Part shown: positions 9,291 through 30,697 of the stretch, one piece after another | How positions within the stretch are numbered: position 1 is the first letter of the stretch | How the letters are laid out: each line of letters begins with the position of its first letter | From: an uncultured Bacilli bacterium | GTDB lineage: Bacteria > Bacillota_I > Bacilli_A > RF39 > UBA660 | Length of the DNA stretch: 64,000 nucleotides | Assembly (NCBI GenBank): GCA_934155645.1 | Contig: CAKPHC010000001.1 | Coordinates: 31,015 to 95,014 of the forward strand | Reading direction: 5' to 3' | Notes under the pieces: model-generated | Seen by the model: only the letters and a program-made list of their open reading frames with translations | Told to the model about the DNA's origin: nothing | Databases searched by the model: none | Position numbers and translations under genes: made by a program

Positions 9291-11513
9291 TTATTCATCA
9301 AAGAAATCATCAAAGAATTTATTATCTTCAACTTCTTCTTCAAGTGTAATTGAAGGGGCATCTTTTTTAGGTATTTCTGCTTCTTTTTCCGATACAACTT
9401 CAGTTGGTTTTACAGGTACCTCTTCAACTACTTTATCTTCTTTAAGAGGTTCTATTTTTTCAATAGGTTTTATATTTTCTGTAATAAATGTATTATTTAC
9501 TACTGGAGTTACATCTGGCTTAACTTCAACCGTTGGTTGTGGTTTAAGAATAGTTGGTTTTTTTTCATTTTCAGCCAATTTAGCACGACGCTCTTCTTCT
9601 TCAATTTCTGCAATTTTAGCATCAATCTTCTTAAGGAAATCATCCATATCAAGCTCTGGAGCATTTTTCTTGTTATCCTTAGGAATAGTATTCATACCAC
9701 CAAAATTATTAGGAGAAGTTGGCATGCTTTGGAATGGATTCATTGGAGCCATACCTGGCATCATTCCACCTTGTGGAGCGCCACCATTATCCATCATCTC
9801 TTTTATCTTTTCTTGACGTTTTTGTTTTACAAATTCCCTAACATCAAATACCGCAACCGGTTTCTTCTTCCTTTCAGGATATTCAATAGGTCCATAACTC
9901 TTGCCCCAGTCTATTTTAAAGTCAGGAGTAAAAGATGTTTTAAATGGTTGCATACGCATTCTTAAAACTATTTGATCAAATTGTTTCATACGTTGCAAAT
10001 CACTTACTGTTACAAGTGGTGTTGAAGCCGTTTTATCATCTTTTTTAGACTTAACTTCACCACATAATTTACTAATTTCCTCTAGTGCTGCTAATTCTGT
10101 AGATATCAAATAAATTAAGTTACCACAGTTACCTTTAATAGTTTCAGCATTTTCAGCACCATATACTTGTTTTAATTGTGCAAAGTTTTGAATAATCATT
10201 GTAAATCTTATTTGTCTAGAACGAGCTGCTGTAATCATTGTTGTTACATCTTTTAAAGGTGGCATGTTAGCAAACTCATCTAGTAAGAAGTTAGTTCTAC
10301 AAGGTAATTTACCACCATTTGATTGAGCAACATCTATTAATGTTTCATAACATTGTTTTACGAAGATAGTTGCAAGTGAATGGTAAGTTTTCTTTTCATC
10401 TTGAATAATTATAAATACAGCTGTTTTTTGTTTACCAATAGACTCTAATTCAAAGTCACTATATGATAACATCTCTGATAAATTCTCACGTGATGAGAAT
10501 AATTTAATCTTTTGTTTAAATACTGCAATAATACTACCCTTAGTTTCATTTGGAGCCATGATAGTACCACTGGCATTTATATAAGCAGCACTATTAGGAT
10601 CTTTCATATTAAAGTATTCTTTTACATAAGTAGAAGCGCCACATTTATCTTCACCAACAGTAGTAGTTAAGCTGATACTATTAATATTAATTTTATCTTC
10701 TGTAGTATCTTCAAACATACCTAATGCTAAACCAGAGAAATAGTCAGCAGAAGTTTTTTCCCAGAATGGGTCAGCATTACCATTATTCTCTTCATATAGA
10801 ATATTTAATGCTAAGTCATCTAGTAACTCTATTGCTTTATCTTGGTTACCACTTTTATATAATCTGTAAGGTAATGTTAATGGGTTCCATGCATTACCTC
10901 TTTGAGGATTACGGAAGTTAAGTAAAATTATGTTATATCCTTTAGCTTTTAACATACTGCCGGTTTTTTCAAACAACTCACCTTTAGGGTCAGTACAAAT
11001 AATAGATTCACCCTTTTTAGCAAGTATTTTAATTGTAGGTAAGATAGTACTAACAGTTTTACCTGAACCAGTAGCACCAATTACTAAGTTATGATATTCA
11101 CCATCATCAACCCAAAGTTCACCGTTCTTACTAATTAAAGGAATACCAGCATAATCAGCCTTCTCATCAGATGGATGTACACATTTTAGTACTTTTTTCA
11201 TTTCTTTTTCTTTAGCCCATCTACTATAACCTTTATCCTTTTTATTCATTGTGAATCCTACACCTTCTTCACGTTCAAAGAAATATGAAGATACACTTGC
11301 AAAAAGTGCCGCTAAAGCAACTATATAAAATATTATAGTTGTAAATATATAATCAGGTCCAAAAGCTGGAAATGGATTAAGTCCTGCTAGTCTTCCTTCA
11401 CTTGCTAGCATTGGTAAATTAACAACACCAAGTGCTACTACATATAAAAGGAAAACAGCAAATATTGCAAAAATTAATACATCTTGTGGTTCAGCTCTAA
11501 ATTTAAATTTCAT
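9291..11513 (-). CDS. Type IV secretion coupling protein (VirD4/TraG/PcfC-like T4CP)
   Basis: 740 aa with two N-terminal transmembrane helices and the Walker A motif VIGATGSGKTVS. The unusual C-terminal tail has a Pro/Met/Gly-rich segment, a Lys/Glu-rich segment, and ends FFDDFFDE. Confidence 0.75.
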   Translation of the reverse strand: MKFKFRAEPQDVLIFAIFAVFLLYVVALGVVNLPMLASEGRLAGLNPFPAFGPDYIFTTIIFYIVALAALFASVSSYFFEREEGVGFTMNKKDKGYSRWAKEKEMKKVLKCVHPSDEKADYAGIPLISKNGELWVDDGEYHNLVIGATGSGKTVSTILPTIKILAKKGESIICTDPKGELFEKTGSMLKAKGYNIILLNFRNPQRGNAWNPLTLPYRLYKSGNQDKAIELLDDLALNILYEENNGNADPFWEKTSADYFSGLALGMFEDTTEDKININSISLTTTVGEDKCGASTYVKEYFNMKDPNSAAYINASGTIMAPNETKGSIIAVFKQKIKLFSSRENLSEMLSYSDFELESIGKQKTAVFIIIQDEKKTYHSLATIFVKQCYETLIDVAQSNGGKLPCRTNFLLDEFANMPPLKDVTTMITAARSRQIRFTMIIQNFAQLKQVYGAENAETIKGNCGNLIYLISTELAALEEISKLCGEVKSKKDDKTASTPLVTVSDLQRMKQFDQIVLRMRMQPFKTSFTPDFKIDWGKSYGPIEYPERKKKPVAVFDVREFVKQKRQEKIKEMMDNGGAPQGGMMPGMAPMNPFQSMPTSPNNFGGMNTIPKDNKKNAPELDMDDFLKKIDAKIAEIEEEERRAKLAENEKKPTILKPQPTVEVKPDVTPVVNNTFITENIKPIEKIEPLKEDKVVEEVPVKPTEVVSEKEAEIPKKDAPSITLEEEVEDNKFFDDFFDE

Positions 11514-11531
11514 AATATTCCTTCTTTCAGT

Positions 11532-12251
11532 TTAGTCATTATCCAATTTTCTTCTCTTATTAAATAAGAATAGTACAATCATAACTACTAATATCAAGAG
11601 AATTATACCAATAGTTTCAAAAATCTTCAATACTTTTTCATCTTGTTGCTTTTGTTCCTCAGATTTTTCAGCAATCTTCTTAGTATTAATCTTCAAATAT
11701 AAATTTTTATTATCAAAATTGTTTTTTGTAACGGTCCAACTATATACGTTATTGGACACTTTATCAGCGTTATTGTCCTCTACCTTATACTTTGTTTTTA
11801 TGTTAATTGTAACTTCATATAAATTGTCAAAGTTTTCTATACACAAAAATTCTTTACTAGTAGACAAAACTATGTATCTATCATTATTGTAAACTTGAAA
11901 ATATTTATAACAACTATTTGCAATATAAGATTTAGAATAATCACTTATACTAAAAGTATTGGTATATTTAATACCTAGTCTATTATTGGAATCTATTTTC
12001 TCTTTCAAATAATACTTATACTGTGGATTAGGGTCTTCTGTATCACCATTTTGTTCATCTTTAAGTACACCTGTTTTTATATTAAGATTATCTTCTATTT
12101 GTTTCTCAATTTCATAATCATAATATAGGTTTTCCTCATACACTTGAAGTTCTTCTTTAATTTCATCACTTTTTATCTCAATATTATATTGAGCACTACA
12201 ACCAGTAAGTAAAAGAACTGAGCATATAATAAATAATATATTTTTTTTCAT
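11532..12251 (-). CDS. Lipoprotein with a C-terminal transmembrane anchor (T4SS-associated, hypothetical)
   Basis: The start was moved to MKKNILFIICSVLLLTGC, which has a lipobox. RBS AGGAGAG. The gene lies between the hydrolase and the T4CP. Confidence 0.5.
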   Translation of the reverse strand: MKKNILFIICSVLLLTGCSAQYNIEIKSDEIKEELQVYEENLYYDYEIEKQIEDNLNIKTGVLKDEQNGDTEDPNPQYKYYLKEKIDSNNRLGIKYTNTFSISDYSKSYIANSCYKYFQVYNNDRYIVLSTSKEFLCIENFDNLYEVTINIKTKYKVEDNNADKVSNNVYSWTVTKNNFDNKNLYLKINTKKIAEKSEEQKQQDEKVLKIFETIGIILLILVVMIVLFLFNKRRKLDND

Positions 12252-12262
12252 AGACTCTCCTA

Positions 12263-14410
12263 TTAAGTTATCTTTAAATAGCAAATAAAATTATATTTAA
12301 TTGTTTCCATACTGATATTTTTAAAATGTTGGCATCCATTTTCTTCACATATAATTGAACGTTTCCTTAATTTGTCAGAACCACTATAATTCCACAACTG
12401 ACTTGAAGTAGTAAAACCGGCTTTTGCAAGGCTACCAAACGAAATACCTGCTTCGGAAATATCTATTGAAATAATATTACCATTACTATCACGATATACC
12501 GCCTCTACTACAGCAACGTGTCCATATTTATGCTTATCACTATTCCAAGATATTATAGAACCCGCTCTTAACGTAGAATCGTTAGGATTATAACTATGTT
12601 CAAATTGTTGATAATCATCGGCTGTACAAAAGCCATTACCATCACCACCATTAGTCACATATTTGTACATATTTTGCAATCCCATAGTAGCAATTATTTC
12701 ATTAGTTCTTCTAACAGCATACCAAGCACATTCTCCCTCATAAGAACCCAAACCAGCAAATCCTTTTGATAAATCTGCAGTAGCAGCATAATAATACAAG
12801 TTATCAATAGTAGCTCTACTTACACGTTTTAAGTAACCGTTTTCATCTTTTACTAATCCTTCCGTAGCACCCACTGTTATAACTACTTTATCAGAATAGT
12901 ATTTTTCTATTATTTCCTCGTAAGTTAAACCGTTCTCAGCATCATACCATGCTCCTAATTGGCTCATTCCTATACAACCAGCATTTGAAGAGGTATCATT
13001 AACGTAAGATTCTATATCAAAATACGATAAATTTTTAGGAATAGAAAGTGTGTGACTACCAAGTTTATTGTGCATATCATAAGAAAAATCAGCAGTACAT
13101 GAAGAATTATTACATTTAACATTACAACTTGAACTTTTAGATGGGAATGTAGTAAATGATGCATAAAAAGGTTTATCATCAAGTGATATATATCTTCCCA
13201 TAGTATCATCAACCGCTTCTACAACTAAAGGATTGTCCTCATATCCTTCTTTATACTTTTGAATATTTTTATTAGTTAATTCGCGAGTACAATTATTAGT
13301 AACATTTAATGCTAAACTTCTTGAAACAACTGCTTGAGCTTTTAGTGCTTCTATCGGAACATCCTTGTCCCCAAGTTCAGCATATACAACTCCTTTAATA
13401 TAATCTTCTAAATCCATAGTTACGCCATCAACAGTAATACCTTTATTACAAACAGAAACAGCAGTAACAAAAGATTGCTTATCCATTACTTTATAATAAG
13501 AATATATTTCTGAAATAATATCTGCTATTTTTTTCTTATTTTCATCACTAGCTTCATCATCTTTATTTGGCATATATTCATTATAATAATTAAATATAAA
13601 GCCTTCATCAATTAAATTCCAATAGTAAACACTACCACTATTATCATCATCAATTCTTCCCTCTTCTATTGATAATGAATAACTCTCTTCAACATCATCC
13701 AAAACACAATTGTTATTTGTTTCATTCAGAAAATCATCATTACTAGCAATTTTTCTTATTGTTGATGAGTCATCAGAACAAGTTTTAGTAGTCATTATTT
13801 GATATTTAGCTAATTTAGAAACTTGATTTTTCATATATGCTATATTTTTGGAGTTTGATGAGTCATTTTCTATATCTTCCATATCGTTGTATGCTATTAA
13901 AGTTGCAAGAATTAAGTTTCCGTCTAATTCAGCTGTACGACGATATGAACTAACTACCTCAGTAATCTCATTTCTTAAGTCTTCATAGATATCAGTCGCA
14001 TCACCAATACCACCAAAAGCATCTTTACTAAAGATTAAAATAAAGAAAAGAAGAATTATTAAAAAAGGACCTGCTATTAAAGGAATATTCTTAATTAAAG
14101 TTTTTCTAATTATTACTTTTGTTCCTTCTACTGCACCCTGACTAATAGTGGGTGCACTACTTGCAGCATTTAACGCTTCTTCACCAGTACTACTGTTTAA
14201 TAACTGTTCAGTAGCAGCTTCTGGAACACCATAAGCTTGTGCTGCTTTCTTGATTCCTGTCTTAATTAATTCTTTCTTTATTCCATTTTTAGGATTAGCA
14301 TTTTGCTTAGCACGTGGGTCAAAAGAAGGTGATGATTTTACAGCATTATTCAAACCACCATTATATCCATTATTAACATTAATTTTTGGTTTTTTTGAAT
14401 CCATAGCCAT
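12263..14410 (-). CDS. T4SS-associated peptidoglycan hydrolase with a SpoIID/LytB-like domain and a C-terminal CHAP domain
   Basis: Has an N-terminal transmembrane segment. The PIEALKAQAVVSRSLAL motif matches the SpoIID signature. The C-terminal GECAWYAVRR...YGHVAVVE is a CHAP Cys/His pair. Confidence 0.7.
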   Translation of the reverse strand: MAMDSKKPKINVNNGYNGGLNNAVKSSPSFDPRAKQNANPKNGIKKELIKTGIKKAAQAYGVPEAATEQLLNSSTGEEALNAASSAPTISQGAVEGTKVIIRKTLIKNIPLIAGPFLIILLFFILIFSKDAFGGIGDATDIYEDLRNEITEVVSSYRRTAELDGNLILATLIAYNDMEDIENDSSNSKNIAYMKNQVSKLAKYQIMTTKTCSDDSSTIRKIASNDDFLNETNNNCVLDDVEESYSLSIEEGRIDDDNSGSVYYWNLIDEGFIFNYYNEYMPNKDDEASDENKKKIADIISEIYSYYKVMDKQSFVTAVSVCNKGITVDGVTMDLEDYIKGVVYAELGDKDVPIEALKAQAVVSRSLALNVTNNCTRELTNKNIQKYKEGYEDNPLVVEAVDDTMGRYISLDDKPFYASFTTFPSKSSSCNVKCNNSSCTADFSYDMHNKLGSHTLSIPKNLSYFDIESYVNDTSSNAGCIGMSQLGAWYDAENGLTYEEIIEKYYSDKVVITVGATEGLVKDENGYLKRVSRATIDNLYYYAATADLSKGFAGLGSYEGECAWYAVRRTNEIIATMGLQNMYKYVTNGGDGNGFCTADDYQQFEHSYNPNDSTLRAGSIISWNSDKHKYGHVAVVEAVYRDSNGNIISIDISEAGISFGSLAKAGFTTSSQLWNYSGSDKLRKRSIICEENGCQHFKNISMETIKYNFICYLKIT

Positions 14411-14443: not shown

Positions 14444-16240
14444 TTATAGTCCTCCTCCACTACCGAAAGATGCTAATTCTTCTGGAGTTACAATTATATT
14501 AATTCTCATACGACGATGTCCGCATACAAATAACGCTTCACCTTGAGAATAACGTTTAATACTTTCTTTTTCATTATCATTTAAATCAACTAATTTCGCT
14601 AAATCTTCAGCAGCTTGTTTCTTAAGTCCCATGATTATGTAATAAGATGCATTATCAAATATTGCTTTACCTTGAGTAATTACAGAAGGAGTTGCAAAGT
14701 CACTAGGTTGTTGAGTAATTATAATAGAACCAGTATTATATTTTCTAGCACGGCGTTGGACTTGTGCTAAGAAATCAGCACCTAATGAGTTATTATCACC
14801 TAATAATACATGAGCTTCATCTACCATAAGGATTGTATCCAAATCACGATTTAAGCAAAGTCCCCAAGCATATTTTAATATGTTGAAGAAAAGTGCGTTT
14901 CTAATGTTTGCTTCAGCATTCATTAATTCTTTTATATTGAAAGTGATAAAATCACTATCATGTGTAATTGTTGTATGACCATCAAAGTAATATTTTAAAT
15001 CATTAGTTAATGGTCTTACTTTTAATTCAAGACGTTCCATAATATCTTTTTCATGAGTATGGTCAGTCATAGACATAAGTCTACCTTTTATAGTTGCGTA
15101 CACATCACTAAATGTTGGATAATCTTTTGCTGTAAAGTTATAGAAGTCTTTATCAAAATCTATACCAAAACGACGATATGTATCTTGAACTACTTCACTA
15201 AACAATGTAAGTACATCTTCTTCAATTGAAGGGTCATAATACTTCATAAATGCTTTTAAGAATTGAAGAGTTCTAGTAAGTACTGTATACCCTAGTCCTT
15301 GTTTAATTTCATCTTCATCAGCATCTATTACTATTTGAAGTGGATTAATCATACCATATTCTCCACCTTTACCAAGGTCAATAGTATCTCCACCAAATGC
15401 TTTAGTCATATCTTCAAGTTCGTTTTCAGGGTCGATTGCTACTATTTGACATCCATTACGAATATGCCCACGAAGCAATAACTTAGCAGCAGTAGATTTA
15501 CCACTACCTGATGTACCAAGTAATATAAGGTTAGCATTATTTCTGTTATTTTCCTTCTTAATTTTATATAAGAATTGGTTAAATAGAATTACACCCCCAG
15601 AGAAATCAACACCAAGTAATGTAGATAATCCTGGGTCTTTAATACTATCGAAAATAAATGGATACATTGCTGCAATAGTAATTGAAGGAATTGGTGTACC
15701 AATACGATCTTCTATATCTTGTTTAGGGAATATTGGTATTATTGATTTTAATACCTTTTCTTGTTCAAATCTTAATGAAACAGCTTTTAATTCCATTGCA
15801 TCAAGATAGTTTTTAACATTAACTTTCTTTAATTCCAAATCTTCTTTAGTATCAGCTGTAATCATAATGTGCATTTGGAAATCAAAGATTCTTGCTTGAC
15901 TTCCAGCTAACATTGTTACGAAATATTCTAGTGATTCATAGTCTAATCTAATTCTCTCTTGAATAGTACGATCACGTTCTTCTTGATATCTAGTCTTAAG
16001 TTCAGCAATTTGCTTATTTAACATCTTAGATACTGTTGAAAATGGTACTGGAATATGTTTAATAACTACTTTAATGCCTGGCATTGTAGTAAGTGTAGAT
16101 AAGTATCCTGGTGCTATAAACTTAGGATAAGATACTACACTTAATATAGTTGCATATTTATCACTTATAAAGAAATCACTATACCCAAAGCTAAGTCCTT
16201 TTGGAGCAATTTGTGATTTAAAATTCATTGAACTACTCAT
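14444..16240 (-). CDS. VirB4/TrsE/PrgJ-family conjugal transfer ATPase (C-terminal 598 aa)
   Basis: Walker A ILLGTSGSGKSTAAKLL and Walker B ILMVDEAH. Confidence 0.8.
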   Translation of the reverse strand: MSSSMNFKSQIAPKGLSFGYSDFFISDKYATILSVVSYPKFIAPGYLSTLTTMPGIKVVIKHIPVPFSTVSKMLNKQIAELKTRYQEERDRTIQERIRLDYESLEYFVTMLAGSQARIFDFQMHIMITADTKEDLELKKVNVKNYLDAMELKAVSLRFEQEKVLKSIIPIFPKQDIEDRIGTPIPSITIAAMYPFIFDSIKDPGLSTLLGVDFSGGVILFNQFLYKIKKENNRNNANLILLGTSGSGKSTAAKLLLRGHIRNGCQIVAIDPENELEDMTKAFGGDTIDLGKGGEYGMINPLQIVIDADEDEIKQGLGYTVLTRTLQFLKAFMKYYDPSIEEDVLTLFSEVVQDTYRRFGIDFDKDFYNFTAKDYPTFSDVYATIKGRLMSMTDHTHEKDIMERLELKVRPLTNDLKYYFDGHTTITHDSDFITFNIKELMNAEANIRNALFFNILKYAWGLCLNRDLDTILMVDEAHVLLGDNNSLGADFLAQVQRRARKYNTGSIIITQQPSDFATPSVITQGKAIFDNASYYIIMGLKKQAAEDLAKLVDLNDNEKESIKRYSQGEALFVCGHRRMRINIIVTPEELASFGSGGGL

Positions 16241-16791
16241 AGTGCCACCACCGTTCCGAATTCTGTTGTTTTACCACCATTCAAGAAATTATCAAGAATA
16301 ATTCTTAAATCTTCATTACTTGTTTGACTAGATAAAAGTCCACATGCAGATAAAGAGTTAATTAACATTCTAATACGTTTTTGAATTAAGTCTAAGTTAT
16401 TCTCTTTAAATAGAATATAGTACTCAGTATCAACAACATTATTATTCATAAATCCGTTTCCTTTTTGTATATCCTCACTAATCAATTTTCTAATTGCAGG
16501 GGAATTAGTTTGATTATACAAAAGCTGTAATTGTGACATATACACAGAAATATCTACAGGTCTATCAGCAACTATTAACCAGAATTCAAAATCTATTTGG
16601 TTATAGAAATTCTTCAAATTCATTAATACATTTGTTTGAGAGTCCTCATCTAATATAAAGATATTTCTTGGTGCTATTTTAACACCAGTTACTTTTAATT
16701 GATTATCTAGGATAATCATTCCATTGGTAATTGATTGAATTGGAACCCAATCCTCAGTATACTTACTTGTTACCATCTTGTTCTTCGCCAT
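16237..16791 (-). CDS. Probable N-terminal domain of VirB4, encoded as a separate 184-aa ORF
   Basis: A soluble protein between the VirB3-like and VirB4 genes. It has an ATGA stop/start overlap with the VirB4 ORF. Together the two ORFs total about 780 aa, the usual Gram-positive VirB4 length. Confidence 0.45.
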   Translation of the reverse strand: MAKNKMVTSKYTEDWVPIQSITNGMIILDNQLKVTGVKIAPRNIFILDEDSQTNVLMNLKNFYNQIDFEFWLIVADRPVDISVYMSQLQLLYNQTNSPAIRKLISEDIQKGNGFMNNNVVDTEYYILFKENNLDLIQKRIRMLINSLSACGLLSSQTSNEDLRIILDNFLNGGKTTEFGTVVAL

Positions 16792-17107
16792 ATTTATTAC
16801 ACCAACCTTTCCAATAATACCTTTGTCTATTTACAAAGAAATACTCATATATATCAGTTAATAAAACCAATACATTATGCTGATACGGTATAGGGATTAC
16901 TAAGAATCCTGTAATAGCAGCAGGAGCAACTACCGCTACTGCAACTATCCAATTTGTCAACATTCCTTGGAATATTAACATAAGTAAAAATGTTATCCCT
17001 ACTCCAGTTCCAAATATTGCTAAATCTATTCCTCGAAAAAATCCGAATATTAGTTTTCCTCGGTTAGAGTTAGCAGGTATTAAATAATTGTTATTATTTT
17101 CCACCAA
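16763..17107 (-). CDS. VirB3/PrgI-like small two-transmembrane T4SS protein
   Basis: About 114 aa with two hydrophobic helices, immediately upstream of VirB4. The start is probably TTG or GTG after an AAGGAGAG RBS. Confidence 0.45.
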   Translation of the reverse strand: MVENNNNYLIPANSNRGKLIFGFFRGIDLAIFGTGVGITFLLMLIFQGMLTNWIVAVAVVAPAAITGFLVIPIPYQHNVLVLLTDIYEYFFVNRQRYYWKGWCNKYGEEQDGNK

Positions 17108-18798: not shown

Positions 18799-18799
18799 A

Positions 18800-23335: not shown

Positions 23336-24234
23336 TACTCAGCACCTACATTCTCGTTATAATATTTTTCTCCAGATAGAAGAAAATAACTGTTAAATAA
23401 AACTATTATATGTAAGCTTATTGTAACTATTGGGTCAGTTAATAACTGTTGATATACTTCAACCCCCAACAAGTACTGAACTAACATTACTAGTAAATAT
23501 AACATAATACCATACTGAACGAATTGTTTATGGAATCCTTGTCTATCTACTCTATCACGATATACACCTTCAACTAACATATCTATATCTTGTAACATAT
23601 TTTCAAGTACTTCTGTAGTATCACGTGAACCCTCTTTAGTAATTTGCAAAAATAACTGATGCATATTTCTAGTCATATAGAAATCATATTTACTATTCAT
23701 ATATTCTATTGATTTATCTACATCACCATTTTGATAAGCCATATCTATCATAACTTTTACATCAGATAAAACTGGGTCTTGTAATACACCAGATGAATAC
23801 ACACCTTCTAAAGCTTTAACAAAGCTTTGAGTAGTTTGAAACTCCATTATTGTATTAGTAACATATACTTGTATTTGTTCAAATATAAATTCACTATATA
23901 TTCTCTTACAACGTAAATATGTTAAGTATGGAACCATTGCAACAACTAATATCGTATATATAATAGATATTATAGGATTATAGAAATATAAATAAGAAAT
24001 TAAGAATGCTGCACCTGCAAAAGTTGCTATTTGAATCATATATTGCTTAGGTGTATATTCTTGACCTAATTCTTTTACTTTTTCACGAACCACTTTAAAA
24101 GAATAAGGTGCATACTTATTATAAATATTACCAGTCTGTGTAACAACAAATGTATATAGAGATTCACCCTTTTTATTACGATACAAAATAATAAATATAA
24201 ATATTACTAATGCAATTATTAACTCTATAGCCAT
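23335..24234 (-). CDS. TadB-like (T2SS-F family) inner-membrane pilus assembly protein
   Basis: 299 aa membrane protein, paired with the TadC-like gene. RBS AGAGGTGGT. Confidence 0.5.
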   Translation of the reverse strand: MAIELIIALVIFIFIILYRNKKGESLYTFVVTQTGNIYNKYAPYSFKVVREKVKELGQEYTPKQYMIQIATFAGAAFLISYLYFYNPIISIIYTILVVAMVPYLTYLRCKRIYSEFIFEQIQVYVTNTIMEFQTTQSFVKALEGVYSSGVLQDPVLSDVKVMIDMAYQNGDVDKSIEYMNSKYDFYMTRNMHQLFLQITKEGSRDTTEVLENMLQDIDMLVEGVYRDRVDRQGFHKQFVQYGIMLYLLVMLVQYLLGVEVYQQLLTDPIVTISLHIIVLFNSYFLLSGEKYYNENVGAE

Positions 24235-24255: not shown

Positions 24256-25533
24256 TTAAATTAATTCTTCAACAACCGAATTATTTGTAGGTACTTTATC
24301 ACCTAAATTAACAAATAAATCATCAACATTTACCCCTTGTCCTTCAAGATAATCTCTTAAATATTTAGAAGGTAATTTATATGTTTCACTACCACTTACA
24401 GTTTTACGATAAATAGTATTGTGACCAGCATTATTATTATCATCAACAAAGAACTCTGTTACTTCACAAATTTCTCTTCTAAATCGTTTTTCAACTGGAT
24501 CAAATCTACCTCTTACATTAACACCTAATTGAACATAACGATGAATTGTTTTTAAGAATTGATCAACATCAATATTAGATTCCAACAAACTATACATACG
24601 ATGCGGAATACTCTCTGCCTTATCAGAGTGAATTGTTGATAAGATATTATGTCCTGATGATATAGAGTTACGTACAGCAGTAACTGCTTCAGCGCTACGA
24701 ACCTCTGATAATAAAATCCATTTAGGATTTTGTCTCATACAAGTTACCAAAACATCAGAATATGATGCAATATTATTAGTTTTCATCGCAACTATATCAC
24801 GATGTGGAAAAATTCTATCTAAATGAAGTTCTAGTGTATCCTCTATTGTTATAATTTTTTCATTATCAGCTGTATGAGCAGCTAAATACTTAACCAACTC
24901 AGTTTTACCAGAACCAGTCTCACCACTTACAATAATATTACAATGACCTTTAACCGCTCTAATTAAAAACTCATGTATATTTAAAGTTACATATCTATCT
25001 GCTAATAACTTATCCTTTTCAAGTCTAATCTTAGCAGGTGTTTTACGAAATACTGCTGCTATACCATTTCTTGCTATAGAATCATGTACAAAATTCATAC
25101 GAAGTTCAGCAGATTCACTATCCAAAAATGGATGTGCCATATTAAAAGTTTTACCCATTACATTAGAACATTGGAAAGCTATTTTTTCTATTAACGAATC
25201 GTTTATTTCTGTTTCATCAGAACGATAAACTCCTTTATCTAAACTCTTTAACCAAACTTGTCCACCATTACTATAAGAAATATCGGTAATATTATCATCT
25301 TGTAAATACTTTTTTAAAGGTCCAAAATCTATATTAGAAAATAAATTATCATTTCTTAAATAATTATCATTTATTTCTCTTGGCTGATGAGCTTGTTGAA
25401 CAGTTGATACACTAGGTTGTCTTAATTCTTCTAAAGGAGTTGGCCCAACATCTTGTTTAGGAACCAAAGAGGGAGTAGAGACGTTATCCTGAGTTTTATA
25501 TGCTATACCTTGTAAATTCATTCCCTCATTCAT
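24256..25533 (-). CDS. CpaF/TadA pilus assembly ATPase (VirB11/GspE superfamily)
   Basis: Walker A NIIVSGETGSGKTELVKYLAAH and a typical T2SS-E fold. RBS AAGGAG. Confidence 0.8.
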   Translation of the reverse strand: MNEGMNLQGIAYKTQDNVSTPSLVPKQDVGPTPLEELRQPSVSTVQQAHQPREINDNYLRNDNLFSNIDFGPLKKYLQDDNITDISYSNGGQVWLKSLDKGVYRSDETEINDSLIEKIAFQCSNVMGKTFNMAHPFLDSESAELRMNFVHDSIARNGIAAVFRKTPAKIRLEKDKLLADRYVTLNIHEFLIRAVKGHCNIIVSGETGSGKTELVKYLAAHTADNEKIITIEDTLELHLDRIFPHRDIVAMKTNNIASYSDVLVTCMRQNPKWILLSEVRSAEAVTAVRNSISSGHNILSTIHSDKAESIPHRMYSLLESNIDVDQFLKTIHRYVQLGVNVRGRFDPVEKRFRREICEVTEFFVDDNNNAGHNTIYRKTVSGSETYKLPSKYLRDYLEGQGVNVDDLFVNLGDKVPTNNSVVEELI

Positions 25534-25534
25534 C

Positions 25535-26440
25535 TTACTCTACTCCTTCTTTTTTATTATTGTTTGTTGTATTACTATCTGTTTTATCATCAGTATTATC
25601 CTTAGTTGGATCATTATTTTCTATAATTTCATCCTCAGGAATATAAATACTCTTCTCTTCAATAAAATCTTTTAAATATTCATTACTTACTTTAGTAACA
25701 ACACCTTCAGTAGTATTTCCATCAAATCCAGTAGTATTAGGTACAGGAATAATATCAATTTTATACTGAGTACTTAAGTTACCAATAGATGCTGCTTTAC
25801 GTAATAACAAATGTATATCTTCTTTAACAGAGAAAATAATTGTAGCAGGTATTCTTGCTTCTTCACTGTTCTCAAAAACATTTAAACCATTAGATGTTTT
25901 AACCGCTCTTACTAAAACGTTAGATACCAACTTTCCTACCATAACTTTGGTATTACCATCAGCATCAGTAGTAATTGTTTGCATATAGATATCTATATAA
26001 TTACCAGGTAAGATAGAATTACTATAAGAAGTAGTTATATTAACTCCTAAATAGTACAATGTCTCATCAATAGGCATATCATAAAGTGCTGCATCAGGTA
26101 ATTCTTCTTTCTTTACTACAGTACCTTTATAGAACATACTTCCTTTAGGAATAACTGTATTAGCACTAGAATAGTAATTAATTAATTGGTTAACATTAGT
26201 AATTACATTTTCATCTATTGCTGCTCTTGCTATTTCTTTATACCCAATCATATCCTTAGTAATCTCAGTTCTAGGTTGTATCATTTTAATAGCATATGGA
26301 ACTTTAACAGGATTAACAGCATCTTTAACACGCCAGTTATACCCTACAAAAATAACAGCAATAATTAGTAATCCACAAAGTATTGTTACTGTATTTTTGT
26401 TTTTTAGAAACATTTTAAACTTTAAACCTAAATTATTCAT
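25535..26440 (-). CDS. CpaB/RcpC-like Flp pilus assembly protein
   Basis: An N-terminal transmembrane segment is followed by SAF-like and RcpC-like regions (ATIIFSVKEDIHLLLRKAAS). Confidence 0.55.
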   Translation of the reverse strand: MNNLGLKFKMFLKNKNTVTILCGLLIIAVIFVGYNWRVKDAVNPVKVPYAIKMIQPRTEITKDMIGYKEIARAAIDENVITNVNQLINYYSSANTVIPKGSMFYKGTVVKKEELPDAALYDMPIDETLYYLGVNITTSYSNSILPGNYIDIYMQTITTDADGNTKVMVGKLVSNVLVRAVKTSNGLNVFENSEEARIPATIIFSVKEDIHLLLRKAASIGNLSTQYKIDIIPVPNTTGFDGNTTEGVVTKVSNEYLKDFIEEKSIYIPEDEIIENNDPTKDNTDDKTDSNTTNNNKKEGVE

Positions 26441-26455: not shown

Positions 26456-26962
26456 TTATTCTTTAAATTTATCTTCTAATATAGCACTAAGAGTATTTAC
26501 TATCTCTGCTGAATCAGTTTCATAGTTGATAGAATCATTTTTCTTAAGTACTTTAGATAACCAATTATATTTTTCTCTTGCTGTAATAGTTACTGTTACT
26601 TTAGGCGGACATTCATCAATGTCATCAAAACTTATTTTATAATCACGATTGTTAGTAGCAGACTCTGCAAATCTTCTTACAAAACTTTCAACAAATTTTT
26701 CTTTAACTATTCTAACTGTACCAGGAATACCAGAAATGCAATGCATAGAGTCAGGGTCAGTTATTTCTGTTACTCCATCATAACCTACTCCCATACGATA
26801 CGCTTGATAATCTATAGCGTCAATCATTGAAGCTTCAGTTACTTCTTTTAAAATGTAATACATATCTTCATTACTTACTGTAATATTTCCAAATAAGTTA
26901 ATTAACACTATTCCTAAAAGTCCTAATACAAGGAATAAATATCCCCATACTGATGACTGCAT
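26456..26962 (-). CDS. Small membrane-anchored protein, possible Tad pseudopilin or assembly factor
   Basis: 168 aa with an N-terminal transmembrane segment. RBS AAGGGAG. Confidence 0.3.
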   Translation of the reverse strand: MQSSVWGYLFLVLGLLGIVLINLFGNITVSNEDMYYILKEVTEASMIDAIDYQAYRMGVGYDGVTEITDPDSMHCISGIPGTVRIVKEKFVESFVRRFAESATNNRDYKISFDDIDECPPKVTVTITAREKYNWLSKVLKKNDSINYETDSAEIVNTLSAILEDKFKE

Positions 26963-26981: not shown

Positions 26982-29960
26982 TTATTGAGGAATTGTCTCT
27001 ACAACAGTAAAGTATGAACGAAATCCTCCTACACTTGTATCATTAGAATGTATAAACATACTCTCATATTTTCCATTTAAATTATATTCGTTAACTCGTA
27101 CATAGTCAATATAAGCATTCTTATTTTTTATAGAATTGTACTCTTTTGTATTCTTTTTTATCTCATTTATTCTATCTTGATTTAACTCTACTACATACTC
27201 CGGCTGTGCTGTACTATCTAAGATTGGATTTAATAAATCATCGGTTATGTATATCTCTTTTCCAAACCAGTTATATCCAGGTCTTCTATTATTTGGAAAC
27301 GGATCTCTTAATGATATTGGTCTATATATATAATCACATGTTATTCCTAAGCAATTGTTATCTTTCTTTACTGAAAGACAATCATTTACACAACTTGCTA
27401 CACTGTTATATCCATCCTTCAAATAGTTAGATTCAATTTTACAATAATTTATTACTGCTTTTTCATCACTAGACGAAAAGTTTGGATTGTGTTTACAACT
27501 ATTATTTCCACTTGAACATGAATCAAAGCATTCTCTTTCACTTCCGTAATTTGCTGTATCACTTATCCAGTTTGTTCTACAGTAGTCTCTTATCTTGTCA
27601 TACTCTGCTGCTTTATATAATCTTGTACATGTATTTTCTTCATCACTCGGATTACCTCTTTGATATTTACATGTTGCTACAATATTATTGTCTATTGCTA
27701 TCGCTCCAAATAATCTTATGTTTTCTGATATTGGTGAATATATTGTGTTTCCATTTAGTATATATCCTCTAGTAGATAAGCCATATGTTATTCCTACATT
27801 GTTCTTGTTTTCTATTAATAATTCATACTTATCTTCTCTTTCAACTATTGAACATGATACCGGAGACTCTACTACATATCTACATGTATTGGTTGCATTT
27901 AAATTACTGCTTCCTTTATTTACTTTTACTTCTGTTTTATATGTATCTTTCTTTATCTTTAAATCTGTATAATATTCATGATATGGTCCATCATTTTCTG
28001 TATCACATTTTCCATTAGCGTTAACATCATACATCTTACCTGTTCCTGCACTTATACATACTGCTGGTAATTTATATGCTGTTTTATTCTTAGAAGTTGT
28101 TTTTATTAATCCATATATTGATTGATATGTTACTTGCCCATTACTGTATAATGGCACTCTATTACTTCCTCCTGCTGTTACTACCACATCATTATTTAGT
28201 AAATTTATTGTCTTTGATGGTACCAACTGTTTAGTTGTTTTTCTATTGCTTGCATTAGCATCATTGCTATTTGTTATATCTATCGTTATTGTTGCATTAC
28301 TTGAATCATATTTATATTTATTATCCAAGTCCTTAACCCATGTTGAATTTGATTCTATACTTTGAAAATTCTTTAAAATTTCTTTTAACTTAGTTCTTTC
28401 TGCTTCAGTATAACTACTTGCATAGTCAAACTTCCACTTTGCTAATTCAAATGTCATCTGACATGTCTTTTCTCCACTTAGTACTGGAGTGTATGTAAAT
28501 CCTGTTCCTGGTGTTAATGTTGTTGGTAAGCTATTACCATAGCTTATTGTACTTGATTCACTACAATTTGAACGATAGTAATTACTTGTATTCGCTTTTG
28601 TACATGTGCTTAAACTAGAGCTTGTATCAGCATCACACTCTGTACTTACACCAGAACTTGATTGATTGGCATTACAACTACTAAATCCAGGATCACTATA
28701 TCCACAAGTTGCAATGCACGTTTTCTTCTCACCTGAATTATCGCTTGCTGCTTGACAATAGTCTTCAGCGCAACTTAACAAGTTATCTCCACTTTTTCCT
28801 GAACATGTTTGCTTACATGTCTGCACTGTTCTTTCTAAACTACATGTTGCTACTTCATTTCCATTCGCATTATAAACCGCTCCATATATTGCTGCGTCTT
28901 TATATGTTCCACGATATATATTATTTTTTACATTATGTTTTAACAAATTTCTATTATTTTTTATATCATAATAAACGGTTTCAGCACCTGCGCCTTGAAC
29001 ATTTAATGTATATGTTCTTTTATCAGTTGCTTCTGTTATTGTACAAGAAACTGGTAATGTATAATTACCTAACCAAAACACATTTATTCCATGTCCTTCT
29101 TTACTTGTTACTTTTTTAACATTATTTATTCTGTTTCGAGTTTCGCCTTCATTCCATACGCTTGTATTCAATCCTTTATCTTTAGTTATCAAATATACTA
29201 AATTACCTATAAATTTATATTTATCATCACCAGTTTGACGTTTTGCTACAATTGAATTAGGAACAAATAGATATAACCACTGAGTTACTGACCCTGCTAA
29301 TTTTCCATCAGTTCCTAACCAACTAGCAATTTCATACGCAGTCCCAAAATAATAATTGCTATTAGCTTTAAACAACAATGCTGGCTCAATTGTAATATAT
29401 AAATTACCAACATCACTTTCCTTTAAATTTTCTACTCCATTACCCTTAAACTCACTTTTTATAGCTCCTAGCACTAAAGTTTTATTACCACTATTAAGCT
29501 CAAACGCTTCTTTAACCTTAGCCTCAATTGCGTTCCAGTTACCATCTTCTTTTTCAGTAAATACTTTAGGAAAAATTATTGAAGTTTTCTTAGAAACAAC
29601 TCCTCTTTTATCAAATTTACCAGGGTTACCTCCAAATTGTTGATACGCTACTTTCCCTTTTTGTGCCGAAGCATAATTAGTTACATAAGTTAAACAATCG
29701 CTATTTGTACCATTAGCGCAATAATTATTAGATCCATAATAAGTAACATTATTACCATCATATTTATACAAAGATAATCTTACAGCAAAAGACTCTACAT
29801 CACTAGGATAACTCCAATCACATCCACGTGCTGAAGAAGCACAACCACCAGGAGTAGTTGTACTATTACCTCCTCCAGTATTTCCAGCAAAAACATTACT
29901 ATTACCAAATAAAATTATTATCAAAATAAATATCATAAAAAAATTAATTATTTTTTTCAT
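26982..29960 (-). CDS. Giant (about 990 aa) secreted cysteine-rich protein, candidate adhesin or tip protein of the pilus/T4SS cluster
   Basis: Has a signal peptide and about 45 Cys, with many CxnC pairs. I recognise no domain. It is the second gene of the minus-strand operon. Confidence 0.5.
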   Translation of the reverse strand: MKKIINFFMIFILIIILFGNSNVFAGNTGGGNSTTTPGGCASSARGCDWSYPSDVESFAVRLSLYKYDGNNVTYYGSNNYCANGTNSDCLTYVTNYASAQKGKVAYQQFGGNPGKFDKRGVVSKKTSIIFPKVFTEKEDGNWNAIEAKVKEAFELNSGNKTLVLGAIKSEFKGNGVENLKESDVGNLYITIEPALLFKANSNYYFGTAYEIASWLGTDGKLAGSVTQWLYLFVPNSIVAKRQTGDDKYKFIGNLVYLITKDKGLNTSVWNEGETRNRINNVKKVTSKEGHGINVFWLGNYTLPVSCTITEATDKRTYTLNVQGAGAETVYYDIKNNRNLLKHNVKNNIYRGTYKDAAIYGAVYNANGNEVATCSLERTVQTCKQTCSGKSGDNLLSCAEDYCQAASDNSGEKKTCIATCGYSDPGFSSCNANQSSSGVSTECDADTSSSLSTCTKANTSNYYRSNCSESSTISYGNSLPTTLTPGTGFTYTPVLSGEKTCQMTFELAKWKFDYASSYTEAERTKLKEILKNFQSIESNSTWVKDLDNKYKYDSSNATITIDITNSNDANASNRKTTKQLVPSKTINLLNNDVVVTAGGSNRVPLYSNGQVTYQSIYGLIKTTSKNKTAYKLPAVCISAGTGKMYDVNANGKCDTENDGPYHEYYTDLKIKKDTYKTEVKVNKGSSNLNATNTCRYVVESPVSCSIVEREDKYELLIENKNNVGITYGLSTRGYILNGNTIYSPISENIRLFGAIAIDNNIVATCKYQRGNPSDEENTCTRLYKAAEYDKIRDYCRTNWISDTANYGSERECFDSCSSGNNSCKHNPNFSSSDEKAVINYCKIESNYLKDGYNSVASCVNDCLSVKKDNNCLGITCDYIYRPISLRDPFPNNRRPGYNWFGKEIYITDDLLNPILDSTAQPEYVVELNQDRINEIKKNTKEYNSIKNKNAYIDYVRVNEYNLNGKYESMFIHSNDTSVGGFRSYFTVVETIPQ

Positions 29961-30001
29961 GTCTTTGTTTCCTTTCATTATTTTAAATTTCTTTCCATTA
30001 T

Positions 30002-30697
30002 CTATATTTTAATCTTTACTCTTTTTTTCTTTTTAATAGTTTTAATTACTACCAATATAACAATTACAATAATTACTATAATAGAAGGAATAACTATTAA
30101 TAAATTATTAGTAATAAATGCCAAAATTATAGAAACAATACTTTTATCATTTTTTTTATTTGAATTATCTACTAAACTTTTTCTATATTTTTCAACTTGA
30201 GTTTTAAAATAATCTTCCGAATCAATTACTCCGCCATAATACTTTTGGCATAATGCAAACTCTTCAATACCTTTACACTCTTCTCTTTGTGAATAATCAT
30301 TATAGTATGGAAGTGTAATACTTTTAGTTATAATCTTATTATCTGGACATTTGGTTTCATTTGAAGTATACAAAGTGAAATCATACTTAGTACCTTCGTT
30401 TACACTTCTTAGAACTCTTATTCCATCATGTTCTAAATCATCCATATATTTAAATTCTTGACCATCAGAATCTACAATATAAAAATCTTTATCAAAATTA
30501 GTTATTAAAACATTAAAATAATATAAATGATTTTCATTGTATGTAGAATCATACAAATCATAAGTTACTTTGATATTAATTGCTTTTTCTTTCAAACTGT
30601 TTAATTCTTTATTACTACATGTCTCAGCATTAACCCTAGTAGTAACAAAAAAGCAAAGAAATAATAATACTATTTTTAACCAAATATTCTTCTTCAT
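30002..30697 (-). CDS. Secreted protein with a C-terminal transmembrane anchor (hypothetical, first gene of the cluster)
   Basis: 231 aa with a signal peptide and a C-terminal hydrophobic segment followed by KKKKRVKIKI. Confidence 0.45.
   Translation of the reverse strand: MKKNIWLKIVLLFLCFFVTTRVNAETCSNKELNSLKEKAINIKVTYDLYDSTYNENHLYYFNVLITNFDKDFYIVDSDGQEFKYMDDLEHDGIRVLRSVNEGTKYDFTLYTSNETKCPDNKIITKSITLPYYNDYSQREECKGIEEFALCQKYYGGVIDSEDYFKTQVEKYRKSLVDNSNKKNDKSIVSIILAFITNNLLIVIPSIIVIIVIVILVVIKTIKKKKRVKIKI

Follow-up and report, generated by a model that had tools for sequence, protein, structure and literature searches.

VirB11, VirB4 and VirD4 homologues were described in 2005 for the plasmids pAW63, pXO2 and pBT9727, and the tra region of pAW63 spans 42 kb (PMC1196294). 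In the pLS20 family, a VirB11 homologue (gene 37) was reported in 2021, contrary to the general statement on Gram-positive type IV secretion systems (T4SSs); genes 38-41 were given as 'unknown' membrane proteins, and the paper states that there are no pilus homologues (PMC8557374). Here we analyzed a 64-kb stretch of DNA from an uncultured Bacilli bacterium (hereafter the window), in which a cluster at 9291-30697 combines a conjugation-type T4SS with a Tad-like ATPase, platform and CpaB module. By gene content, this composition is already known on Gram-positive conjugative plasmids, and what appears to be new is its chromosomal, lineage-wide context without a nearby relaxase. On sequence comparison, we judge it reasonably probable that the cluster is a chromosomal member of the pLS20/pAW63 class of machinery, that is, a contact-dependent exporter of conjugative origin.

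The closest described relatives were plasmid systems. On one strand, pBMB67 of Bacillus thuringiensis carries genes for a MobP3 relaxase, VirD4, TrbL, PrgI, a 228-aa open reading frame (ORF), VirB4, a surface protein, a SAF-domain protein, a small AAA ATPase, a T2SS/T4P/T4SS ATPase (type II secretion, type IV pilus or T4SS), two hypothetical membrane proteins and small proteins including one of DUF4320. Hidden Markov models (HMMs) built from the lineage of the window matched eight of these genes, namely those for the SAF-domain protein (1.2e-38), the ATPase (3.4e-37), the TadB-like (7e-12) and TadC-like (1e-10) proteins, the 228-aa ORF as the N-terminal part of VirB4 (2e-21), the C-terminal part of VirB4 (8e-91), VirD4 (4e-84) and PrgI (5.4e-5). 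Like the window, pAW63, pXO2, pBT9727 and pBMB67 encode VirD4, TrbL, PrgI, a split VirB4, a SAF/CpaB protein, an ATPase with two membrane proteins and a large surface protein. However, plasmids of the pBMB67 type are conjugative, with the MobP3 relaxase beside VirD4, VirD4 as the first gene and the modules about 8 kb apart, whereas the cluster in the window is chromosomal and contiguous, has two VirB2-like genes and no relaxase nearby, and its proteins are about 24-33% identical to those of the plasmids. For the nearest plasmid proteins, the identities were about 30% for VirB4 and 28-32% for the ATPases.

The gene order of the window was also seen in plasmids of the pLS20_p028 type, pZB18 of Enterococcus faecium and a Paraclostridium plasmid, which read adhesin, small proteins, CpaF/VirB11, proteins of about 270, about 240 and 120 aa, small proteins, VirB2-like, VirD4, VirB6, VirB3-like, VirB4 and hydrolase. 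The pLS20 family itself reads adhesin, small transmembrane (TM) protein, VirB11-like (gene 37), 268-aa, 243-aa, 120-aa and 47-aa proteins, small two-TM protein, VirD4, VirB6, VirB3-like, VirB4, VirB8 and VirB1. Its 268-aa and 243-aa proteins share the TM topology of the platform pair in the window, and the 120-aa and 47-aa proteins are single-TM. In contrast to the window, the pLS20 operon lies on plasmids that bring their own relaxase and regulation. It lacks a CpaB gene, and the slot that the TadZ-like gene occupies in the window, after the small pilin-like genes and before the VirB2-like gene, is empty. The homology between the pLS20-type platform-like proteins and those of the window was weak (0.029 to 1.3e-4), with only the second ORF giving a weak match. 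The features by which we define the class, a T4SS together with a VirB11/CpaF ATPase, two membrane proteins, small single-TM proteins and a large surface protein upstream, were all present in the cluster.

The original prediction for this DNA had held that Firmicute T4SSs carry neither VirB11 nor Tad components and that no system of such composition had been described. Both statements fell: pAW63, pXO2 and pBT9727 (PMC1196294) and pLS20 (PMC8557374) encode VirB11, and pBMB67 (beside its MobP3 relaxase), pZB18 and the Paraclostridium plasmid share the layout, a finding that the prediction itself had named in advance as removing its novelty. The plasmid ORFs that follow 'VirB11' (pBMB67 at 59.2-64.7 kb, which is locus L094, and loci L095 and L096) are annotated as hypothetical or unknown, and we did not find them recognized as TadB/TadC-like platforms in the literature examined. 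The comparison suggests an unrecognized type-IV-filament module in Gram-positive conjugation systems of the pAW63/pLS20 class. We predict that the unnamed genes after 'VirB11' in these plasmids encode the TadB/TadC-like platforms of a filament machine; as a corollary, if true, the 'VirB11 module' of these systems would be a Tad-like filament machine, and Gram-positive conjugation of this class would use a type-IV-filament organelle.

In a scan of one genome per species, at least 535 genomes of uncultured Bacilli with reduced genomes encoded a close relative of the VirB4 protein. Locus counts given below refer to the best 80 of these relatives, and L-numbers denote related loci used for comparison. 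The VirB4 proteins of these 80 were 78-98% identical, and all 80 loci were colinear.

Gene content of the cluster

The cluster had been predicted as a colinear run on the minus strand, and the ORF list bears this out with 20 successive minus-strand ORFs at 9291-30697. In order of coordinates, they are:

9291..11513, minus strand: VirD4-type coupling protein (T4SS-DNA_transf, 2.6e-61)
11532..12284, minus strand: lipoprotein with a C-terminal membrane anchor at the PrgL/VirB8 position (conserved lipobox LTGC)
12263..14410, minus strand: cell-wall hydrolase with SpoIID/LytB and CHAP domains (Pfam, NCBIfam), a strain-variable cassette
14444..16240, minus strand: VirB4 ATPase, C-terminal part, 598 aa (PDB 4AG5, Mbov_0397)
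16237..16791, minus strand: VirB4, N-terminal part, a separate TrsD-like ORF of 184 aa (Mbov_0397 profile)
16763..17113, minus strand: VirB3/PrgI/TcpE-like small membrane protein (TcpE, 0.0027)
17137..18810, minus strand: VirB6/TrbL-like polytopic membrane protein (TrbL_4, 1.3e-6)
18800..19183, minus strand: VirB2-like paralogue 1 (T4SS_pilin, 9e-8, 32.5 bits vs a cut-off of 26.6)
19266..20384, minus strand: DUF6273-related, membrane-anchored extracellular protein, 372 aa (by the DUF6273 matches of its homologues)
20469..20810, minus strand: VirB2-like paralogue 2 (T4SS_pilin, 1.7e-5; two TM helices)
20897..21874, minus strand: cytoplasmic protein of 325 aa at the TadZ/CpaE position (by position; GIKNVT..AGATT motif)
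21886..22278, minus strand: minor-pilin-like protein, 130 aa (conserved N-terminus MR(D/E)AxGG, then a hydrophobic helix)
22313..22477, minus strand: pilin-like protein, 54 aa (short charged N-terminus, conserved Gly-Glu, one hydrophobic helix)
22547..23335, minus strand: TadC-like platform protein, 262 aa (paralogue of the TadB-like protein)
23335..24234, minus strand: TadB-like platform protein, 299 aa (one T2SSF-fold cytoplasmic domain between TM segments)
24256..25533, minus strand: CpaF/VirB11-family secretion ATPase (T2SSE, 2.8e-26)
25535..26440, minus strand: CpaB/RcpC-like SAF-domain protein with an N-terminal membrane anchor (RcpC, TIGR03177)
26456..26962, minus strand: DUF5411 membrane-anchored protein, 168 aa (PF17424, 4.7e-39)
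26982..29978, minus strand: Cys-rich secreted protein, 998 aa, candidate adhesin (32 Cys; one N-terminal hydrophobic segment)
30002..30697, minus strand: first gene of the cluster in transcription order, 231 aa, with a signal-like N-terminus and a C-terminal anchor (TM 4-22 and 200-218)

The genes had been described as packed with gaps of 0-30 nt or overlaps. Both overlaps named then are present (22547..23335 with 23335..24234, and 14444..16240 with 16237..16791), while the spacing is looser than claimed, with intergenic distances of -29 to +34 nt apart from four wider gaps of 69-86 nt, which precede the 54-aa gene, VirB2-like gene 2, the 372-aa gene and VirB2-like gene 1. The T4SS and the Tad-like ATPase, platform and CpaB genes thus lie in one colinear cluster and are probably co-expressed. 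A scan for promoters and terminators was uninformative overall, with fewer promoter-like sites than in shuffled sequence. Two of the wider gaps held near-consensus promoter-like sites with 11 of 12 matches each, at the level of chance for the scan overall: TTGATA-17-TATAAT in the 69-nt gap 22478-22546 before the 54-aa gene, and TTGACA-17-TATGAT in the gap 20811-20896 before VirB2-like gene 2. Promoters in both gaps would fit extra expression of structural subunits.

In the T4SS half, the labels VirD4, VirB4 (both parts), VirB6, VirB2-like (two) and SpoIID+CHAP hydrolase given in the original prediction all found HMM support, as did a CpaF/VirB11-family ATPase in the other half. The VirD4-type protein passed the NCBIfam cut-off for the CD1115 family (300.3 bits vs 250), has two N-terminal TM segments, and was found in 61 of the 65 loci with sufficient downstream flank. 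The Walker A motif is intact in all three ATPases (VirD4, VirB4 and the CpaF/VirB11-family protein), as is Walker B in VirB4. The C-terminal VirB4 ORF matched PDB 4AG5 (4.8e-54) and the profiles Mbov_0397 (5.7e-105), CD1110 (9e-51) and TIGR00929 (9e-25); these profile matches were all under the equivalog cut-offs, yet unambiguous at superfamily level. A weak match to CedD was also seen (2.3e-9). The 184-aa ORF aligned to positions 98-276 of the 894-position Mbov_0397 profile (3.3e-14), that is, to N-terminal positions of the profile matched by the 598-aa ORF, indicating that the pair is a split VirB4. The N-terminal part was an ORF of its own in 78 of 78 loci. We considered a frameshifted VirB4 and rejected it, because the split was seen in every one of these loci and in pBMB67.

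The VirB6-like protein scored 28.4 bits against the TrbL_4 cut-off of 27, and its NCBIfam matches were the pLS20_p028 family (9.7e-11), MMCAP2_0566 (1.3e-9) and Mbov_0396 (2.7e-7). In both VirB2-like proteins, an N-terminal Cys and a C-terminal CW are conserved. For three other labels of the original prediction, VirB3-like, DUF6273 and CpaB, the window copies gave weak or sub-threshold matches, and support came from the families or homologues, indirectly so for VirB3-like and DUF6273. The VirB3-like protein matched TcpE weakly, and its family HMM matched, besides PrgI of pBMB67, DUF5592 of pZB18 (8.5e-4). The 372-aa protein was itself sub-threshold for DUF6273, and its homologues matched at 2.8e-5 to 2.3e-10; DUF6273 paralogues also lie 3ʹ of VirD4 (23 of 149 downstream ORFs in 49 loci) and at 37723-39372 of the window. 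The window copy of the CpaB-like protein matched RcpC (1.7e-5) and TIGR03177 pilus_cpaB (2.9e-8), both under the curated cut-offs, and at family level the identity was clear, with HMM matches to the RcpC protein of L091 (6e-55) as well as the SAF-domain protein of pBMB67. The lipoprotein carries its predicted lipobox and had no family match in Pfam and no PDB match in a profile search; solely its place in the gene order suggests a VirB8-like role. Taken as a whole, the components of a monoderm (MPF_FATA-like) T4SS were found: a VirB4-family ATPase, VirD4, a VirB6-like protein, a VirB3-like protein (weak) and a hydrolase adjoining VirB4.

In the Tad-like half, the secretion ATPase has the Walker A sequence GETGSGKT and is 51-85% identical across species. 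Its NCBIfam scores were 109 bits for VirB11, 101 for TadA-conjugal and 96 for TrbB, and its PDB scores were 66.8 bits for CpaF, 62.3 for VirB11 and 59 for FlaI. The two platform proteins, publicly annotated as 'hypothetical protein', had no Pfam match in 12 members of each family nor in 10 distant representatives and no match in PDB profile searches, and tblastn against plasmids was empty. With sequence-level searches empty, the assignment of both as TadB/TadC-like was made by structure and profile-profile comparison. A good AlphaFold model of the TadB-like protein shows the GspF/PilC fold. An hhalign comparison of the two families gave a probability of 18% with 12 sequences each, and with 67 sequences each, plasmid homologues included, it gave 91.7% (E 7.7e-7, 207 columns). 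The TadC-like family HMM also matched the Paraclostridium plasmid (1.3e-4). The labels TadB and TadC were thus unsupported by sequence matches and stand through the modeled fold of TadB and through TadC as its paralogue. By model, the two are paralogous single-domain proteins of the GspF fold in a Tad/archaeal-type arrangement beside the ATPase and the CpaB-like protein, and the two platform proteins with one T2SSF domain each that characterize Tad systems are present.

The smaller genes of this half were characterized mainly by position. The 54-aa protein, a putative pilin, has a conserved N-terminus, MK(A/E)A(T/S)GELN(L/M)T(V/L)(I/V)T, in an alignment of about 60 orthologues. The 130-aa protein had no Pfam or NCBIfam match, and the DUF4320 protein of pBMB67 gave only a weak positional match (0.099). 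Two genes, those of the 130-aa and 168-aa proteins, had been called TadE-like, and a third CpaE/TadZ-like; these labels are positional, as nothing in Pfam or NCBIfam tied the 130-aa or 168-aa protein to TadE, and the 325-aa protein had no match in Pfam, NCBIfam or PDB profile searches. The 325-aa protein gave a weak HMM match (0.034) to an 'AAA family ATPase' at the same position of pBMB67. DUF5411, the family of the 168-aa protein, has been reported beside CpaF and PilC/GspF in Clostridia (PMC9523054).

Upstream of the Tad-like genes, the 998-aa protein is Cys-rich and has a signal-like N-terminus, as had been predicted. It had no family match in Pfam or NCBIfam, and its counterpart in L002 is 1419 aa long and 29% identical. 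It occupies the slot of the large surface or adhesin gene in pAW63 (CDS26), pLS20 (gene 34), pZB18 and the Paraclostridium plasmid. On these grounds it is a candidate adhesin and a fast-evolving surface component. The 231-aa product of the first gene had no Pfam or NCBIfam match; the gene is at the same position in L001 and L002, with 31% identity in L002.

Two further genes, possibly associated with the cluster, lie close to it:

30785..31240, plus strand: thioredoxin/PedC-like gene, divergent from the cluster (Thioredoxin, PedC-like)
5688..6215, minus strand: second thioredoxin/PedC-like/TraF-like gene, about 3 kb past VirD4 (Pfam PedC-like, TraF and Thioredoxin, weak)

The first is at the same position in L002, a similar gene adjoins the variant locus L091, and another lies inside locus L093; a gene similar to the second lies after VirD4 in L018. 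Altogether, three PedC-like/thioredoxin-fold genes were seen in the 64 kb, at 5688-6215 (minus strand), 30785-31240 (plus strand) and 45461-46069 (minus strand), and two of them bracket the cluster. These proteins may serve disulfide formation or folding of the Cys-rich secreted parts.

Chromosomal context and conservation

We scanned the surroundings of the cluster for signs of mobility. No relaxase, integrase or transposase family was found among the ORFs of the window in a Pfam-level scan, and no relaxase or integrase was among the 25 commonest families in 149 ORFs located 3ʹ of VirD4 in 49 species. No att-like direct repeats bounding the cluster were found; tRNA genes in the window lie only at 1.5 kb and 44.8 kb, with none at the borders of the cluster, and a megablast of the cluster against plasmids returned no near-identical DNA. 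The flanking genes encode CTP synthase, diacylglycerol (DAG) kinase, thioredoxins, CoA-enzyme activase, BipA, glycosyltransferases, FtsW/RodA and a sigma factor. At the Pfam level, the original observation of housekeeping flanks without relaxase or integrase therefore holds.

The same architecture was present in diverged genomes. In L002, from a diverged metagenome-assembled genome (GCA_017525035), the same order of 20 genes lies behind the same thioredoxin and DAG-kinase genes. Identities between the window and L002 were graded by gene, with 86% for VirB4, 70% for the TadB-like protein, 68% for the ATPase, 39% for VirB6 and 29% for the Cys-rich protein, compared with 56% for the neighboring DAG kinase and 44% for the thioredoxin. 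Across loci, the identity of VirB6 was 23-59%. Both platform genes were present in 56 of the 63 loci with sufficient upstream flank, and the ATPase and 54-aa genes in 54. Flanks were common within sub-groups, with thioredoxin and DAG kinase shared by the window, L002 and L021, and BcrAD/HGD-D genes shared by the window, L007-L009, L011 and L040. Many human-gut metagenome contigs carry unchanged cluster proteins with the same neighbors. Two carriers are circular chromosomes of 1.31 and 1.52 Mb (OZ006981.1 and OZ006970.1), and carrier records include 'uncultured Bacilli/Tenericutes bacterium', 'Mycoplasma sp. CAG:877', 'Clostridium sp. CAG:710' and Candidatus Onthousia. A recent sweep would lead to uniform identity; the gene-graded divergence, together with flanks common within sub-groups, points instead to long vertical descent in which the motors were strongly constrained and the surface changed quickly. 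The pattern supports a cluster that is chromosomally fixed, vertically inherited and domesticated. The chromosomal, domesticated look noted in the original prediction is thus sustained by an architecture and some neighbors common to diverged genomes and by the lack of att-like repeats and boundary tRNA genes.

The hydrolase was a strain-variable exception in an operon otherwise fixed. In L005, whose VirB4 is identical, a 689-aa protein with Peptidase_M23 and Phage_lysozyme domains stands in place of the SpoIID+CHAP hydrolase. The exchanged cassette comprises 11532-14410 of the window (hydrolase and a lipoprotein of 239/250 aa) and L005:11831-14918 (the 689-aa protein and two genes of about 167 aa), and the genes around the swap stay 98-100% identical.

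These data bear on the possibility that the cluster is the transfer region of an integrative and conjugative element (ICE), or a recent remnant of one, with relaxase, oriT and integrase outside the window and the high identities due to recent spread. All relatives of known function sit on mobile elements that carry a MOBP relaxase, VirB4 and VirB6 find their best family matches in proteins of Mycoplasma ICEs, the G+C content of the cluster is slightly above that of the flanks, and the hydrolase cassette is exchanged between strains. However, mobility genes were absent from the 64 kb and did not recur 3ʹ in the 49 species, neither boundary repeats nor a boundary tRNA was found, and the same chromosomal neighbors occur even where housekeeping proteins of the genomes have no more than 44-64% identity. 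Per-gene identities from 29% to 86% in one genome pair are not what recent transfer would leave, and at least 535 species genomes have a close VirB4, whereas the nearest plasmid proteins are about 30% identical. We therefore rejected a recent ICE as the main explanation, on the lack of mobility genes in the 64 kb, the syntenic flanks and the graded divergence; it is largely refuted and very improbable.

A second explanation is that the cluster consists of two independent neighbors, an adhesive Tad-like pilus for colonization and a separate T4SS. In its favor are loci where T4SS genes alone lie between housekeeping genes (L038 and others), the Tad-like-only locus L093, the locus L091, which lacks the ATPase and has CpaB, platform and TadZ-like genes, and the candidate internal promoters, and the authors who described a Cutibacterium acnes plasmid left the link between pili and conjugation open (PMC5696575). 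Yet in 56 of 63 species the genes kept their order and strand, no locus was non-colinear, and plasmid families unrelated to each other show the same pairing inside single conjugation operons or tra regions. In L021, moreover, the ATPase and platform genes are gone, and the TadZ-like gene stays beside the T4SS genes. We give two unrelated neighbors only a slim chance. As to the distant variant itself, L091:8717-14539 and L092 carry genes for a PedC-like thioredoxin, RcpC/CpaB, TadB-like, TadC-like and TadZ-like proteins and a 582-aa ORF among ribosomal-protein genes, without an ATPase or pilin-like gene, and the TadZ-like protein is 40% identical to that of the window.

Several other features of the surroundings were seen. 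The recurrent families 3ʹ of VirD4 were RmuC (25 of the 149 ORFs), VTT/DedA domain (23) and DUF6273, followed by housekeeping genes, and staphylococcal-nuclease homologues made up 4. In many species, a same-strand trio follows the operon, consisting of a DUF6273 protein (about 400 aa), a VTT/DedA-domain protein and RmuC (L022, L027, L028, L031, L041-L046, L052, L058-L068 and others, at about 16.5-21.5 kb); its DUF6273 protein is a paralogue of that at 19266-20384 of the window. The window species has CoA-enzyme activase genes where its relatives have the trio. At 35662-39372 on the minus strand, a surface amidase with two bacterial Ig-like domains (540 aa) adjoins a 549-aa DUF6273 protein, which is weakly similar to the 372-aa protein of the cluster; both end in G.GT...PY. 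Two CotZ-like spore-coat genes, an FtsW/RodA/SpoVE gene and a sigma-70-family factor are clustered at 56822-57664 (plus strand), 58127-59254 (plus strand) and 61791-62567 (minus strand), with homologues of the group annotated in L088, and the group may serve sporulation in this lineage of reduced genomes. At the left edge of the window, a Schlafen/AlbA_2 + HATPase_c_4 protein (64-1374, minus strand) lies beside tRNA-Gly and tRNA-Cys genes, and in a same-species contig that extends past this edge, a DNA methylase gene follows it (L089:12459-15269). This pair may be a defense or restriction-related islet.

Proposed function and its alternatives

As no relaxase, integrase or element boundary accompanies the cluster, we infer that the machinery has been exapted for the cell's own use and not for moving a mobile element. 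Because the operon-linked VirD4 is conserved and passes its family cut-off, export is favored over import; to our knowledge, the known importers, ComB and Ced, have no VirD4 coupling protein. In the mechanism that we propose, the filament unit and the Cys-rich surface protein would make or hold cell contact, or the filament unit would push a short filament through the wall. The hydrolase would open the peptidoglycan, VirD4 would recruit a cytoplasmic substrate, and VirB4, together with the VirB3-like, VirB6-like and VirB2-like proteins, would move it out into the partner cell. The data themselves establish which genes are present, their homology to the plasmid systems, their distribution and conservation and the lack of mobility genes nearby, whereas a filament, the direction of transport and the substrate belong to the proposal.

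The substrate may be DNA, in a relaxase-independent or trans-relaxase chromosomal exchange between cells, an assignment that we make tentatively and by analogy, since all function-known relatives move DNA and the nearest protein families are those of Mycoplasma ICEs. Chromosomal transfer in Mycoplasma via an ICE-encoded T4SS is a model for such DNA exchange. Transfer of a protein to a partner or host bacterium would come as a close second.

The direction of transport is where a DNA-uptake reading departs from the exporter. According to this alternative, the Tad-like pilus would capture DNA and the T4SS channel would import it, as in ComB and Ced, supplying nucleotides and alleles to a reduced genome. 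According to a citation in PMC5696575, Tad loci are needed for transformation of Micrococcus luteus, and a Tad locus is reported as needed for DNA uptake by Liberibacter (PMC8513845). T4SS-type importers are reported for Sulfolobales (Ced; PMC9905601) and Helicobacter (ComB), and the weak CedD match of VirB4 points the same way, as does the presence of RmuC and staphylococcal-nuclease homologues 3ʹ of VirD4. However, VirD4 is in the operon in nearly all loci and passes its family cut-off, all detectable homologues of known function are exporters on conjugative plasmids, and the adjacency of RmuC and nuclease genes may be plain synteny. We therefore regard import as improbable.

The fast-evolving surface raises another alternative, a host-interaction or 'feeding' apparatus of an epibiotic or parasitic cell resembling Saccharibacteria. 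In this case the filament unit and the variable adhesin would fasten the small-genome cell to a host bacterium, and the T4SS would support growth by delivering proteins or opening a conduit and would not serve DNA transfer. In Southlakia, peptidase and lysozyme genes located after virB4 are essential for epibiotic growth (PMC12102498), and L005 has a similar M23 and lysozyme protein at the hydrolase slot. The carrier genomes are reduced (1.3-1.5 Mb), and RF39 has been described as highly auxotrophic (PMC12306168). The surface evolves fast, as seen in the Cys-rich protein (29%), the hydrolase swapped between strains and VirB6 (23-59%), and the motors are more conserved than neighboring housekeeping genes. 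On the other side, no sign of attachment to other cells is known for these bacteria, and unlike typical epibionts they retain genes for the wall and for division, possibly also for a spore coat. The type IV coupling protein (T4CP) of Saccharibacteria is unlinked and not essential (PMC12102498), whereas VirD4 is linked and conserved here, as in DNA-transfer systems, and the closest relatives of known function are conjugative plasmids. An epibiotic feeding apparatus is thus unlikely, though less so than DNA import.

Our preferred reading of the cluster as an exapted exporter allows a broader one, to which we assign a low but real chance, that the order (probably RF39) depends on the machine for an obligate cell-to-cell lifestyle, either attachment to other gut bacteria and their exploitation, as in Saccharibacteria, or routine chromosomal exchange without a relaxase, by which a shrinking genome would stay viable. 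If true, this would explain both the extreme conservation and the resistance to cultivation.

Several observations weigh against the exporter reading. Of the 63 loci with sufficient upstream flank, 7 had T4SS genes without ATPase or platform genes within 10 kb, one of them flanked by a P-type ATPase and BipA. The more distant L093 reads ATPase, platform, platform, small protein, small protein, thioredoxin, large protein and DUF5411, then housekeeping genes, with no T4SS genes. The T4SS-only loci and the Tad-like-only L093 indicate that either half can occur without the other and that they do not have to act jointly. The scores of the ATPase do not separate CpaF from VirB11 or FlaI, the 54-aa protein lacks the Flp G/xxxxEY processing motif in about 60 orthologues, and no prepilin peptidase (TadV/CpaA, A24) was found by Pfam in the 64-kb window. 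The G+C content of 0.29-0.35 in the cluster versus 0.22-0.27 in the flanks also fits an old foreign origin. The relaxase of pLS20 is said to have been recognized only late, and unrecognized relaxase families reportedly exist. Finally, the carriers probably belong to the order RF39, going by their record titles and the GTDB classification, and NCBI lists them only as 'Bacilli incertae sedis'. On the same observations, the label 'Flp-like' for the 54-aa protein, whose N-terminus is conserved without the motif, is positional, and the 'complete Tad/Flp pilus module' of the original prediction, with its ATPase equally CpaF or VirB11, is overstated; 'Tad-like' is justified and 'complete' is not.

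Relation to other known systems

Literature searches found no chromosomal, relaxase-less, lineage-wide version of this system, and nothing relevant for RF39 combined with T4SS or pili. Bacilli of the RF39 kind, most of them still uncultured, are common in the guts of humans and animals and combine very small genomes with many auxotrophies. A machine kept in hundreds of species gives a handle on the biology of this large gut lineage and offers targets for co-culture, imaging and metatranscriptomics. Motors conserved above the level of housekeeping genes, together with a fast-evolving surface, point to frequent contact with other cells.

The filament half resembles the Tad/Flp systems of Caulobacter (Cpa) and Aggregatibacter (Tad) in its CpaF-family ATPase, two single-domain platforms, CpaB/RcpC and tiny pilin-sized and minor-pilin-like proteins. 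The window differs from them in having no G/xxxxEY motif, no TadV/CpaA nearby, platforms invisible to the T2SSF HMM, a TadZ position without a family match, an ATPase that may be CpaF or VirB11, and a module located inside a T4SS operon. The union of a T4SS and a type-IV-filament machine on one element is also seen in the IncI1 plasmid R64, whose thin pilus is needed for mating in liquid according to a citation in PMC12102498; R64, however, is a Gram-negative plasmid with a type IVb pilus and an MPF_I T4SS. A linear plasmid of Cutibacterium acnes has a tad locus beside VirB4, FtsK-like and TcpC genes (PMC5696575), and differs from the window in being a plasmid.

Mycoplasma ICEs provided the best NCBIfam match of VirB4 (352 bits, profile positions 294-889, with 98-276 covered by the N-terminal ORF) and were among the best family matches of VirB6 (Mbov_0396, MMCAP2_0566). 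Their VirB4 is a single protein, unlike the split one of the window, whose score lies under the family cut-off (352 vs 590 bits). These elements are mobile via a DDE recombinase and support chromosomal transfer, and we know of no recognized relaxase and no CpaF/VirB11 module in them.

The system closest in manner of use is that of Patescibacteria, whose T4SS is derived from MPF_FATA, chromosomal and mostly without a relaxase, with a TrsD that resembles the VirB4 N-terminus and VirB2 arrays in which a non-pilin gene may intervene (PMC12102498). With the window it shares a lineage-wide chromosomal T4SS, the lack of a linked relaxase, the TrsD-like split, the VirB2-like array and reduced genomes; this likeness was set by features, not by phylogenetic placement, and means 'works like' rather than membership in a clade. 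Patescibacteria differ in belonging to another phylum, in a T4CP that is usually unlinked and in type IV pili of another type encoded elsewhere, and no CpaF/VirB11-type module has been reported beside their virB4, whereas the window keeps VirD4 in the operon together with a filament module. If the exporter reading is correct, the cluster would be the second case, after Patescibacteria, of a monoderm conjugation system exapted by a reduced-genome lineage.

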